From NCBI GenBank assembly GCA_012295275.1, contig CM022667.1, positions 1,922,001 to 1,986,000 of the forward strand: DNA of 64,000 bases. The letters are read 5' to 3'. Both the position numbers and the translations under genes were made by a program. A model generated the notes under the pieces. It was given only the letters and a program-made list of their open reading frames with translations. It searched no databases and was not told the origin of the DNA. Shown here piece after piece: positions 40,701 through 46,700 of the stretch (the first letter of the stretch is position 1; the number at the start of each line of letters is the position of its first letter). The DNA comes from Chrysomallon squamiferum. Its lineage: Eukaryota; Animalia; Mollusca.

Positions 40701-43700
40701 GACTACATAATCTCTACTGGTATTATCCAAAACAAGTGAGAGGAGAAGTAGAACTGTTTGAACACAACATTTCAACAGAGGCAGAGAAGCATTTTGGCAT
40801 GTAAGTACATTTCTTTCTCTATATATATACTTATATATATATTTATTAAACAAAATCCATTAAAAGTAAATCTGATTCGTAGACATTATTTTAATCATGT
40901 TTGTTAATTAAACAAATTAATTATAAGTCAAATTCATTTTATTTTTGAAATGAATCTGTGAAAGTTCTTTTTTTTTTAATTACATATAGTTATTAAAACA
41001 AAATTCATGTTCGTATGTAGATATTTATTTAATTACGTTTCGTAATTCAGGTATAATTAATTAAAAGTCTGTTTCGTGTTTATTCATTTGTTTCACCACT
41101 AACCGAAAGAAAATTTATTAAAAATCAGTTTCATATGTACCAAATTTTATGTATTAATTAATTTACTTGCGTGTACTAATTAATTTTTGTTTTTGTTAAA
41201 ATATAATTAGGGCACAATAACTGACTATGATTATAACAATGATGTTGATTATGATGATTATAACGATAATTACTGAGATAATGATTAAAAGATCTAATAT
41301 GTCGATGATAATGAGAATTATAAATAAAATGAAGAAGAAAATGATGATGACGATGATGAATGATGATGATGAAATCAGTATTATGATTTTTTTTTAATCA
41401 TTCTCTTTTCCAAAAAATTCATTTATTCATTCAAAAGTGGTGAAAGTTTTTATGGCATTTTTGACATATTCATTGCATGTTTTGGATTAAAGTTCATTTT
41501 GTATCAGTTACTAATTATAAAATAATATTTAACGTTAAATATAATTTATTAAAGCATGTTAATTATATTTGTACATACAATGGTCTCATAGTGGGCATAG
41601 TGATTTGTATTACATGCATGTGTATGAGTGTATGTGTGTGTGCCTGCGTGTGCGTGTCTGTGTGTGGAAAGAAGATAAATACATTGTACTTACTTGCAAT
41701 GTAAATTCTAGGACTGCATGGAATGTTAACGATGTGAAATTTGTTACCAGTTGCATGTTCGTATACAAGTCTGAAGTGAAAGATATTTAGTTAATATTTA
41801 GAAATATATATGCAAACGCGATGTGAATGCACACACACACATTCAAATTTATATAAAAAGCTATACACATTTTGATGACCTCCCCAAGGGTACCAAAAGA
41901 CGCGAAACGATCTTTTTTCCAGCTTGCAGAATAGTTCTTAGTAACCTCAATCTTCGACTCTTTTCTCTCCTATATGTATGTATGTATATATATATATATA
42001 TATATGATATGTATATATGTACATATGTATACCAACATTAAATTTAGCATATCTGACACTTAAATGTTTTATATTAAACTATGTTTAGGTGTCGTTAAAT
42101 TATATATTTTTGTGTTCACTCTCTCGCTTGCTTTTTTTTTCTTCTCGTCTGTATATTTGAGTGTTGATGTACGAGAGAGAGAGGTGTGTGTGTCTGTGTT
42201 TGTATTTTAGTATTTGTTTGCTCGTTATTTCGCTATAATGTTGTTTTGTAATGATGTTAGGTTTTCCGTGTTGTGTCTCTATCTCAAAGTTTTTGTTGTT
42301 GTTTTGAATGCTTGGCCAAGAATAGTATTGTTTATTGTTTGTTGTTTGTTATTTTTATTAAATCTATTATGATCATTATACTTTAATTATTTGTTTCTAT
42401 TATTTTTATTATTATTACTATTATTATTATGATCATTATCATTCTTCTTCTTCTTCTTCTTCTTCTTCTTTTTCTTATTATTATTATTCTTCTTTATTAT
42501 TATTATTATTATTATTATTATTATTATTATTATTTCATACTACTGATGCTGCTGCTTTTTAGATTTCTGTTCGCTTCTGTAAATTTGTTTTTAAAGTTTT
42601 AATTTCTTTTAATTTTAATCACTGATATTACATAAAGTAAGAAGGCATTAAAAGATATATGTAAGTTAGAAACTGTAAACCGCTGAAACCAATGTCTTGG
42701 GCTGTTAGTGATAATGAACATTTTAAAACTAGCTAAATCTATGGCCTACTAAAGTTAAGATATTTGACATTAACTACAAATATGAAAGTAAATATATAAA
42801 TAGATATATAAATAAATAAACAGAACAACAAATAAACAAACAAACTCTCCAACAAAAAAACAACGAGAAATAATAATGATAATAATAATAATAATAATAA
42901 TAATAATAATAATAATAATAATAAAAAAAACCGAAAGAAAAACCTCACAAAAATAATTTATTACCAAGAAATTTTTATCTACATCATTTCATCATCATGA
43001 TGGTCATCATCATCATCATCATCATTAATCATTGCCACAAGAACCAACACCACAATTACTACTAATCTTAACTACAGCTTATTTAACCTTGTTTTCGTAA
43101 ACGCTTACTTTACTTACCTTTCTCTGCGTGCGTGCGTGCGTGCAAGCGTGCGTGGTTCTGGGTGTGCTTGCGTGCGTACGTGTGCGTATTTGTGATAATA
43201 ATATAATTCCATGGCTGTTATATTATTCCTCATTTTTCTGTTTGATCCAAATCTTTACATATATATATATATATATATATATTGCTTTACTTATCTTTCT
43301 AGCTTATTTCGTGTGTTAAATAAACCAAAAAATGTTTTCACCCCGTCTCCGCATTTCTGCTTCTCTTCTAGCCCACATATCACGTTTCGAACAGTCTTTT
43401 GGTCGATGCTTGGTAGGGGCGAACCGCAGGCCGTAGAACTCGACGGATACAACAACATGTTCACGCAAAACGTCGGATACTGGATATTTGGCGTCTACAA
43501 CGTCGCCGTTGTCATTGTCTTGTTGAACATGTTGATAGCTATGATGTCAAGGTCGTTTGAGATCATTCAGGTAAAAAAAATTAACAAACGTTTAGGCGAC
43601 GACAGATTCTAGACTGAACTAGAGTGAAATATTTTTTTTGTTTTTTTTTTTTTTTTTACCAACACTCAACCCCTGGGCGTCTGTGGTTTGCATGGGAAAG

Positions 43701-46700
43701 AACATGGAAGTGGTATTTGTCAAACAGTACCTTTGATAGTATGGATGAATAGTCTTATGCTATATATTTATATATGCTATATTTCCAAGATATTATTTTG
43801 TTGTTTAAACAGCGACTTATCGTTGCTAATCACAAAGTACGACCTGTTAGAAATAACAATTTTACAAAACAGTCGAACGCCGCCATTTCATCCTTTCGCA
43901 GCTGAAGTTGTGACGTCATTGCCTACATGGCCGACTGACAGCTGCATTTTTCTCACAGCTGTTTACGCGATGACGTCAGAGACAGGAAGAAAGGGCGGCG
44001 TGCGCATCATAAAGAAACATGTATTCTTACGCGGTCTTATTCCTTATTAATTAAGACTAAATGGGGAAAAAAAAAAACAAAAAAAATCTTGGAAGTATGC
44101 AAAATTTATTTAGACTGTTCATCGTATCATCAAAGGTATACGTTAAGTTTAGAAGCTTACGTGTAAGGACTGCAGACGTCGTTGCCATGGTGTTGCTTTT
44201 TCTTCAGTTTTGATAAAACGTTTCGGACGTCGTTTTGGTCAGTACTGGGCAGAGGGGAGCCTGAGATTGTGGAACTCGGCGACTACAAAAATTACTTGAC
44301 TCAAAATGTCGGGTACTGGATATTCGGCGCCTATAACGTTACCATAGTGATCGTTCTGCTAAACATGCTAATAGCCATGATGTCCAGATCGTTTGAACAG
44401 ATACAGGTAACGTTTCCGTAAAACACGCAGGTAGATCTGAATAGCAGAGCATGTTATATACAGGTAATTTAATTCTAGAACATATATATATATATATTTA
44501 TTGTTAGCATACATATACAGGTAATTAAATATTAAAACGTATATACAGGTAATGTAATATTAAAACATATATACAGATAATTTAATGTTAAAACATGTAT
44601 ACAGGTAGGGTAATGTTAGAACACATATACGGATAATTTAATATTAAAATGTATATAAAGGTAATTTAATACTAAAATGTATACACAGGAAATTTAATAT
44701 TAAAACATACAGACAGATAATGTAATATCAAAATTTATATACAAGTAATTTAATGTTAAAACATATGAACGTATATACAGATAATTTAATATTAAAACGT
44801 ATATTCATGTCATTTGATATTAATACGTATATACAGGTAATTTAATGTTAAAATATGCATACAGGTATTTAATATTACATATATACATAGTTAATTTAGT
44901 GATAGAATATTAGTATATTTGTATGTGTCTGGATTACTTTATAAAATTATTTATTGTTATTTAACAAATTTTAATTATTATTATTATTATTATTATTATT
45001 ATTATTATTATTATTATTATTATTATTATTGAAATAATGACAAGCAATGTGCAGAAACAAATAAAGAATTATAGACAATGTTTTCAAAATAAAATGATAT
45101 CAACAATTATTTAAATGATAAAATAAATTAGGTTCTACCGAGACTTGAACTCGGATCGCTGGATTCAGAGTCCAAAGTGCTAACCATTACACCATAGAAC
45201 CGATATTTTAACACTTTAATAATGTTATTCTCATCTCTACGTTAAATTAGTGTGATATTATTTTAACATTTTAATAATGTTATTCTCATCTCAACGTTAA
45301 ATTAGTGTGATATTATTTTAACACTTTAATAATGTTATTCTCATCTCAACGTTAAATTAGTGTGATATTATTTTAACATTTTAATAATGTTATTCTCATC
45401 TCTACGTTAAATTAGTGTGATATTATTTTAACACTTTAATAATGTTATTCTCATCTCAATTGAAAAAGAAGACGTTAAAAAATAATTATAATGATATTAT
45501 TTTAACATTTTAATAATGTTATTCTCATCTCAACGTTAAATTAACTCGGATCGTGTTCAGATATTATTTTAAACATTTTTAATTTAATGTTATTCTCATC
45601 TCTACGTTAAATTAGTGTGATATTATTTTAACACTTTAATAATGTTATTCTCATCTCAACGTTAAATTAGTGTGATATTATTTTAACATTTTAATAATGT
45701 TATTCTCATCTCAACGTTAAATTAGTGTGATATTATTTTAACGCTTTAACAATGTTATTCTCATCTCAACGTTAAATTAGTGTGATATTGTTTTAACACT
45801 TTAATAATGTTATTCTCATCTCTACGTTAAATTAGTGTGATATTATTTTAACACTACATTATTCGTACTGAAATTTATTTTAACACTACATTATTCGTAC
45901 TGAAATTCACGTACAAGGTGAGACAGATTTTACTTTTTTTTATTTTTTCTGATTCAAAAAAGAAAATATCTGCATTTCGATTAACTTGGTAAACCACACC
46001 GAAGACGATGAACATAATTACAATAATCATGATTATGACAACGAAGAAGACGTCAATAACGATGACGATGATGATAATAATAATAATAATAATAATAATA
46101 ATAATAAAACAATAAATAAATGTTAAATATATTTACACTAATCTGCTACTATACTATTGTCATTCTACTGCTACTACTACTACTACAACTCTACTACTAT
46201 TACTCTACCACTACTACTACTACTACTACTACTACTACTACTACTACTTCTAACACTACCATCCAGAGGACATATAAAGACTATAACATTTTCTTATTGA
46301 ATTTTAAAGCACCGAATGTTTGTTTTATCTCATTTGTAATCAATGGATTTGCCAATAAAATTAAATTATTGCTTTAAATAAGTATATGTTAATGACATTT
46401 AAAAGTAGTGTAAAAGTCTAAATAATAATAATAATAATAATAATAGATGTAAATATATATATATATATATTATTATACATAGTTATAATTTAAAATTGTA
46501 TTATCAGAAGTGCTTCGCTAATGATGTAAAATGTATTTTATGCTGTTACCTATACATGTTTGCTAACAAGGTGAAATTCATATACTTAATCATCACTGCA
46601 TGTATTTATGAAATAAAACTAATATGATGTATTTTAGACTTATATTTCGTATAATTTATATGATGTATTTTAAATCATAATGAAGGTTTATATCATAAAC

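Follow-up and report, generated by a model that had tools for sequence, protein, structure and literature searches.

An intronic arm with two competing predicted partners between tandem TRPC pore exons of Chrysomallon squamiferum

The 64-kb window analyzed here (Chrysomallon squamiferum, contig CM022667.1, positions 1,922,001 to 1,986,000; all coordinates below are those of the window) carries a TRPC-family channel gene on its plus strand, and our subject is the pair of tandem pore exons of this gene together with a short element in the intron between them, which we call arm S. TRP_2 and ankyrin domains were found at 29759-30334, mollusc TRPC proteins aligned to the window in 14 tblastn segments, and the Pfam domain Ion_trans was found in both pore exons, with the match in the first scoring slightly below the Pfam curated cut-off. 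Pore exon A (43372..43570, plus strand; 199 nucleotides [nt]) encodes the pore helix, pore loop, and S6 and is the ancestral-type copy, and pore exon B (44208..44406, plus strand; also 199 nt) is its tandem duplicate. Both have AG/GT ends, and the copies, termed 11a and 11b in an earlier interpretation made from the letters of this DNA (hereafter, the sequence-only reading) and labeled A and B here, share 72% nucleotide and 77% amino acid identity. The exon A protein is 86% identical to TRPC of Batillaria and 83% identical to those of Patella and Haliotis, and its nearest named proteins are all from gastropods.

The exon upstream of exon A ends in phase 2 and the exon downstream of exon B starts in phase 0, so the reading frame would be kept by exactly one 199-nt copy. 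Joining exon B after exon A produces a stop at the second codon of exon B, and nonsense-mediated decay (NMD) would likely remove such an A+B transcript; because both exons are 199 nt long, NMD could also enforce exclusivity. Adjacent, homologous, equal in length and phase, and equipped with intact splice sites, exons A and B have the layout of mutually exclusive tandem duplicated exons. In a related species (organism B), all 20 differences listed for exon A fall at third codon positions, as do 13 of the 16 listed for exon B, with the other 3 at first positions; these counts cover the differences listed, and 27 further rows lie outside them. Both exons are intact, and this pattern indicates codon-position constraint on them. 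The proteins P0001 and P0128 resemble the A type and the B type of another relative, no second pore-exon form within one species was found among the full-length members listed for ten mollusc clusters, and the duplication looks lineage-restricted.

Ion channels are enriched for tandem duplicated exon substitutions, whose origins are convergent (PMC9741552), and the homologous alternative exons of our channel gene are of the kind described there; the main text of that paper does not mention "TRP," whereas the unit duplicated in our TRPC gene is the entire pore helix-loop-S6 exon. TRP pore-exon tandem duplications were also found in other animals (L049:351-991, L054:4001-4781, L057:1058-1893, L039:161-780, and L040:4001-4755), with independent duplication of the whole pore exon in three loci and of the S6 half in two. 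The literature consulted, which was thin on subscription papers, contained nothing on the duplicated pore exons of this gene or on the repeat described below.

The sequence-only reading had taken the whole intron between the two exons for one long hairpin, formed by seven complementary blocks and selected at the RNA level. All seven blocks were recovered at the same coordinates, the intron folded at -188.4 kcal/mol (z, -7.0; 0 of 20 shuffles as good), and its unpaired ends were as short as proposed, with block 1 beginning 24 nt past the donor and ending 21 nt ahead of the acceptor. A single long hairpin was not confirmed: blocks 3-7 were stable in every context (pair probability [P], 0.93 to 0.99), whereas blocks 1 and 2 depended on context, with P values of 0.68 and 0.54, respectively, when the intron was folded by itself, both dropping to 0.0 when the two exons were included in the fold; block 2 also fell to 0.0 at 10 to 20°C. 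The branch-point region was said to be buried, and the best motif (A44159) was indeed paired, but within a local hairpin (44138-44164) and not in a long-range stem. No Rfam family matched the intron at E up to 1. Since blocks 3-7 are stable everywhere and blocks 1 and 2 are lost once the exons are included, the modeled intron is two things, an inner repeat and outer parts, rather than one hairpin.

The inner part (blocks 3-7; 43727..44139, without assigned strand; 413 nt) has TA at both ends of 43728-44138. Under symmetric DNA scoring, its left half matched the reverse complement of its right half end to end in 135 of 195 columns (about 70%), and this alignment ran through the loops as well as the blocks (z, 10.2; 0 of 500 shuffles), the inter-block stretches being weak on their own (14, 111, and 127 of 1,000 shuffles as good). 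The earlier argument for RNA-level selection, an excess of G-U pairs with no A-C pairs, did not hold: 43738/44128 is an A-C mismatch within block 3, and the excess was an artifact of pairing by eye, as strand-symmetric alignment of the inner arms gave five G-U and five A-C mismatches in well-matched context, 10 and 9 over all columns, and ratios of 5:4, 5:6, and 4:5 under three other scorings. The antisense strand of the intron folded too (z, -5.8). The sense strand of the inner element folded 16.7 kcal/mol better than the antisense strand, a gap reached by 0 of 100 shuffles; in simulated symmetric decay of a palindrome, a gap as negative arose in 21 of 240 cases and one as large either way in 49 of 240.

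Six runs of this species (organism A) had multi-copy depth over the region, with 32 to 69 contigs per run. The contigs piled up at 43851-43951 and 44033-44146, where the summed depth in run X1 reached about 9 and 30 times single-copy depth, respectively; these figures are contig depths and not copy numbers. In these runs, 65 to 95% of the matching records continued into unlike sequence, some other contigs ended at 44136-44146, and a contig joining 43783-43806 to sequence from 43910 was present in five of the six. The organism B run had three matching contigs only, namely, exon A, exon B, and one 45-nt intron piece; past exon A, the first of these continued for 611 nt of intron in which no match was listed. 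The inner 413 nt thus recur elsewhere in the genome of C. squamiferum and are undetected in a relative that keeps both exons, and both results count against the hairpin as originally conceived. No second full copy was found within the window and none in 79 metagenome loci, and GTDB genomes gave 0 matches; seven viral-contig loci that matched the repeat were rejected because they had only the 18-letter seed in common with it.

Variant sites listed from allelic contigs numbered 19, and one 36-nt deletion was present as well. In tallies that cover listed differences and exclude 44064-44122 (poly-A and multi-copy), the stems were not significantly short of variants (one-sided p, 0.21 to 0.28), and three of the four variants in high-probability stems break a pair. 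Pair-breaking alleles lie at 43986, 43896, and 43981; the alleles at 43974 and 44139 keep or improve a pair. The deletion allele (43814-43849) was observed in runs X1 and X3, the latter of which also has the undeleted allele.

Miniature inverted-repeat transposable elements (MITEs), or foldback elements, are non-autonomous DNA transposons that are short and non-coding and have inverted arms. The element studied here is short and non-coding, has inverted arms, is too small at 413 nt for a transposase, and belongs to a dispersed multi-copy family according to the organism A contigs. Its length of about 410 nt, long inverted arms, TA at both ends, and many related copies in this species, with next to no copies in the related one, are MITE-like; unlike a typical MITE, it is heavily decayed, its arms being about 70% alike. 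The palindromic arms, the symmetric mismatches, the multi-copy matches, the pair-breaking alleles, and the absence in the relative make it likely that 43727-44139 is a decayed multi-copy inverted repeat, probably a MITE-like transposon inserted in the intron. Candidate flanks are the TA at 43728-29 and 44137-38 or a TTAA-like in-register pair (43720-23/44143-46). Several observations pull the other way: the stretch 43807-43876/44002-44063 alone was not above shuffles (127 of 1,000), part of the depth peak (44064-44086) is poly-A, some tallies gave a variant density in stems about half that in loops, and neither a target-site duplication nor an empty site was confirmed. Transposons have been reported in an intron between exclusive exons (PMC7969005). 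For genome scans, our result is a caution that a strong intronic hairpin rich in G-U pairs may be a decayed transposon.

Arm S (43676..43691, plus strand) belongs to the outer parts of the intron. It is a 16-nt single-copy element, with contig depth at allele level only, and has two mutually exclusive predicted partners. Partner 1 lies in the coding sequence of exon A (43419..43431, plus strand) and forms 13 bp with 43679-43691 (-20.5 kcal/mol), a helix that falls outside the coordinates of the sequence-only reading. Partner 2, the 3' arm of block 2 (44167..44180, plus strand), forms 14 bp with 43676-43689 (-19.1 kcal/mol) and is positioned downstream of the putative branch point of exon B and upstream of the pyrimidine tract of that exon. 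As the branch point we take A44159 (44156..44160, plus strand; 49 nt before the acceptor), presuming the consensus YTNAY, of which this is the match closest to the acceptor. The two helices overlap by 11 nt of S, and block 2 is lost when exon A is folded in because S pairs with 43419-43431 instead; whenever the fold included exon A, 11 pairs of this helix had P values of 0.97 to 1.0.

The strength of the S:exon A helix was matched by 2 of 1,000 exon shuffles, 0 of 313 window tiles, and 2 of 300 trials with both sides shuffled, and that of the S:partner 2 helix by 0 of 400, 2 of 300, and 1 of 2,000 shuffles; the latter is also sense-specific (-19.1 versus -5.1 on the minus strand). Within the 64 kb, a pairing energy of -15 or better is attained by 19 sites against exon A and by 11 against the intron's 3' flank, and S alone belongs to both sets. 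It is the strongest of the flank's partners and the second strongest of those of exon A, and it sits between both targets. Shuffled versions of S reached -15 with both targets in 4 of 3,000 cases and never matched the observed pair, and shuffled flanks gave overlapping helices in 0 of 400. Pairing of S with exon B itself (-10.4) and with the upstream intron (-12.2) was weaker. The whole-flank duplex of the outer intron parts was not above shuffles (105 of 1,000; alignment, 330 of 1,000); the single helix alone was. In forced-state folds, the two states of S differed by 2.3 to 7.5 kcal/mol in ensemble energy, with the exon A helix favored. The second strongest partner of the 3' flank was 43986-43999, the right arm of block 5 (-18.0), which by eye lies against the pyrimidine tract of exon B and is normally locked in block 5.

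Compared by eye, the substitutions of organism B mostly appear to fit both helices. In the partner 1 region, the changes at 43420 and 43423 keep pairs, those at 43432 and 43435 add pairs, and that at 43426 breaks one; in partner 2, those at 44170, 44174, and 44179 keep or improve pairs and that at 44172 breaks one. Hence, of the nine substitutions opposite S, seven retain a pair or create one; the two that break one, 43426 and 44172, both face 43684; we predict that a G at 43684 in the organism B arm would fit both. Partner 2 is kept in register, with 9 of 13 letters of 44168-44180 retained compared with 4 of 17 beside it (p = 0.016, post hoc). This look for covariation, made in one relative and at the targets without arm S, yielded P = 0.10 for compatibility and p = 0.016 for the identity of partner 2. 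An attempt to read arm S from the GT-rich tail of P0001 was rejected, since two registers fitted equally well, and no orthologous locus was found in a metagenome scan (37 of 64 parts) or in prokaryote genomes.

These observations suggest a model in which S would repress whichever exon it pairs with, so that one pore version is chosen. The helices overlap on S, so only one could form at a time. With S on 43419-43431, the 5' part of exon A would be masked and the exon B acceptor left free, leading to use of B; with S on 44167-44180, the stretch of exon B from branch point to pyrimidine tract would be blocked, leading to use of A. The repeat is probably a later arrival between S and partner 2, tolerated because its folding on itself would hold their separation at about 60 nt rather than about 480. 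An A+B product would stop at the second codon of B, and NMD would be a sufficient back-up needing no structure, a role it has been given for exclusive exons elsewhere (PMC6071210, PMC5740500). We consider the chance that S is a functional two-way switch to be about even, if anything slightly better, and the full composite, in which the repeat is a decayed MITE-like insertion and S a two-way repressive switch between exon A and the exon B acceptor region, to fall just short of even. The earlier proposal that intron pairing biases exon choice would then survive as an idea, with block 2 acting as one of two competing helices, and not as a whole-intron hairpin.

Several points weigh against such a switch. 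An equally strong S:exon A helix arose in 106 of 1,000 synonymous-codon resamplings of exon A, this helix was found after several looks so that its p-values are post hoc, and when the end-to-end helix test was applied to 12 other introns of this gene, one of them also outdid all of its shuffles. The compatibility count in organism B alone was not significant (P = 0.10 under a rough null, with one forced change excluded and for the targets only). The exon B acceptor was not opened in the exon A:S state, in which the accessibility of the pyrimidine tract was 0.25 to 0.36 versus 0.47 to 0.63 in the other state; as the model shows no such opening, the step from pairing to splicing is one that we infer, and it is likewise from sequence that we infer the mutually exclusive use of exons A and B.

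A somewhat unlikely alternative is that all of the pairing is incidental, the repeat being a bystander and the helices of S chance, and that exclusivity is achieved by splice-site competition, protein regulators, and NMD of the frameshifted A+B product. The 199-nt exons with their immediate stop when joined suit this explanation, as does the finding that in 377 of 629 human clusters of mutually exclusive exons (60%) the lengths are not multiples of three (PMC5740500), but exon-joining reads were found in just 22% of such clusters (PMC5740500), so that frame alone seldom explains exclusivity. Among five introns that separate tandem TRP pore exons of unrelated animals, four folded no better than shuffles; in the fifth, at L054, the antisense strand had the better fold, and neither of the two apparent orthologues of L054 folded. 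A UGCAUG hexamer at 43689-43694 is a possible site for a protein regulator, but this motif occurs 25 times on the plus strand of the window, corresponding to a chance of about 6% in the 156-nt flank. The context dependence of the outer stems also favors incidental pairing, whereas the position of S as the sole dual partner in 64 kb, placed between its targets, and the retention of partner 2 in register in organism B argue against it.

It is improbable that only the stem of S with partner 2 is functional, in which case it would weaken the exon B acceptor or hide the AG dinucleotides at 44166 and 44174, exon B would be a regulated minor exon, and the exon A helix would be due to chance. This stem is significant and sense-specific, both AGs, which lie between the branch point and the acceptor, are in or at its 3' arm, and the exon A helix is partly dictated by protein sequence; against this, the exon A helix is preferred at P values of 0.97 to 1.0 when exon A is in the fold, and in organism B the arm is kept although the 30 letters seen at this place contain no AG. 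An RNA-selected whole-intron hairpin that itself blocks A-B joining or biases the choice, possibly through exaptation of the repeat, is less probable still, because the great stability of blocks 3-7, the better sense fold, the alleles at 43974 and 44139, and a block 3 without any listed variant apart from 44139 are set against symmetric mismatches, a strand gap within the neutral-decay simulation, multi-copy matches with nothing matching in organism B, pair-breaking alleles, a 36-nt deletion in two runs, and the tendency of a stem joining donor and acceptor to promote and not block splicing (PMC7404189).

The closest precedent for the two-way switch is human ATE1, where the element R3 in the intron that separates exon 7a from exon 7b pairs with R1 or R4 and the paired exon is suppressed, the isoform ratio tracks the energy difference, and loss of R3 leads to double inclusion (PMC7797038). 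As in ATE1, we have a two-exon cluster in which one element of the intervening intron has overlapping partners at each exon, here predicted. R1 and R4 of ATE1 are similar to each other and intronic, lie immediately upstream of the respective exons, and are conserved among vertebrates (PMC7797038), whereas partner 1 here is exonic, lies in the coding sequence of exon A 48 to 60 nt from the acceptor, and is no paralogue of partner 2; moreover, a repeat stands between S and partner 2, and our switch is a predicted one. Paralogous intronic partners at both 3' splice sites, as in ATE1, are therefore absent, and with its exonic, non-paralogous partner the locus is not classed under the architecture of ATE1 itself. 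The exonic partner appears to set this candidate competing-structure switch apart from that precedent.

Docking site/selector pairing, known from Dscam, 14-3-3zeta, Mhc, and MRP1, similarly uses a single site with several competing complementary partners, but those genes have their docking site beside the cluster and use pairing to loop exons out (PMC6071210), whereas S, the shared site in our gene, sits between the two exons. The flanking introns yielded no Dscam-type docking site: their best helices with the outer intron parts (-11 to -14.4) stayed within the range of 8 shuffles each. FGFR2 IIIb/IIIc reportedly also has an intronic stem between exclusive exons, NMD as back-up, and UGCAUG nearby, all of which recall our locus; that stem is said to be one activating bridge, unlike the two competing repressive helices proposed here.

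If the switch is real, repressive competing structures of the ATE1 type would extend to molluscs, and one partner would have been recruited from coding sequence, in contrast to the origin by stem-arm duplication proposed in PMC6071210. The switch would be small, with three elements of 13 to 16 nt inside 0.8 kb, and would select between two pore-loop/S6 versions of a TRPC channel. A more far-reaching possibility, which we regard as rather unlikely, is that a bistable 16-nt arm switches the pore modules of a snail TRPC channel while the foldback transposon in the loop serves as a self-folding spacer that tunes the balance, such that transposon alleles and temperature could shift the isoform ratio.

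Other features of the same intron and its surroundings were also noted. The 5' arm of block 1 (43595..43603, plus strand) can pair with 44178-44186 (-14.5) or with exon A at 43501-43507 (-12.0) and is minor and context-dependent. Around it, 43588-43626 is similar to the read-through of P0001 into its intron, a similarity reached by 0 of 150 shuffles and by 6 of 124 other stretches of the window. The end of a poly-T tract (43650..43660, plus strand) is expected from the fold to cover the donor of exon A by pairing with 43570-43580 (P, 0.9); the accessibility of this donor was identical in both S states, which places the pairing outside the modeled switch. In another intron (49012-49370, approximate bounds), the two ends pair in a helix of 14 bp (-13.7), which was stronger than those of all 40 shuffles.

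The protein P0005 is a 526-amino-acid open reading frame of tandem TRPC S6 exon ends plus read-through, that is, an array derived from a pore exon. In the window, a 28-nt tandem array of about 15 copies (44455-44877) begins 48 nt past exon B; since each unit copies the last part of this exon together with its donor, the array contains many donor-like sites. A 55-nt tandem array (45204-45855; 93 to 96% matches) adjoins a tRNA-Gln gene. Seven tRNA-Gln genes (six CTG, one TTG) were found at 14401-20151 and 45130-45201, one of them in the intron past exon B; the similarity extends to their flanks and suggests that a unit with tRNA-Gln has been repeated. Finally, a 30-nt inverted repeat (23531-23560/24769-24797; 93% identical, 1.2 kb apart) is possibly another terminal-inverted-repeat element.

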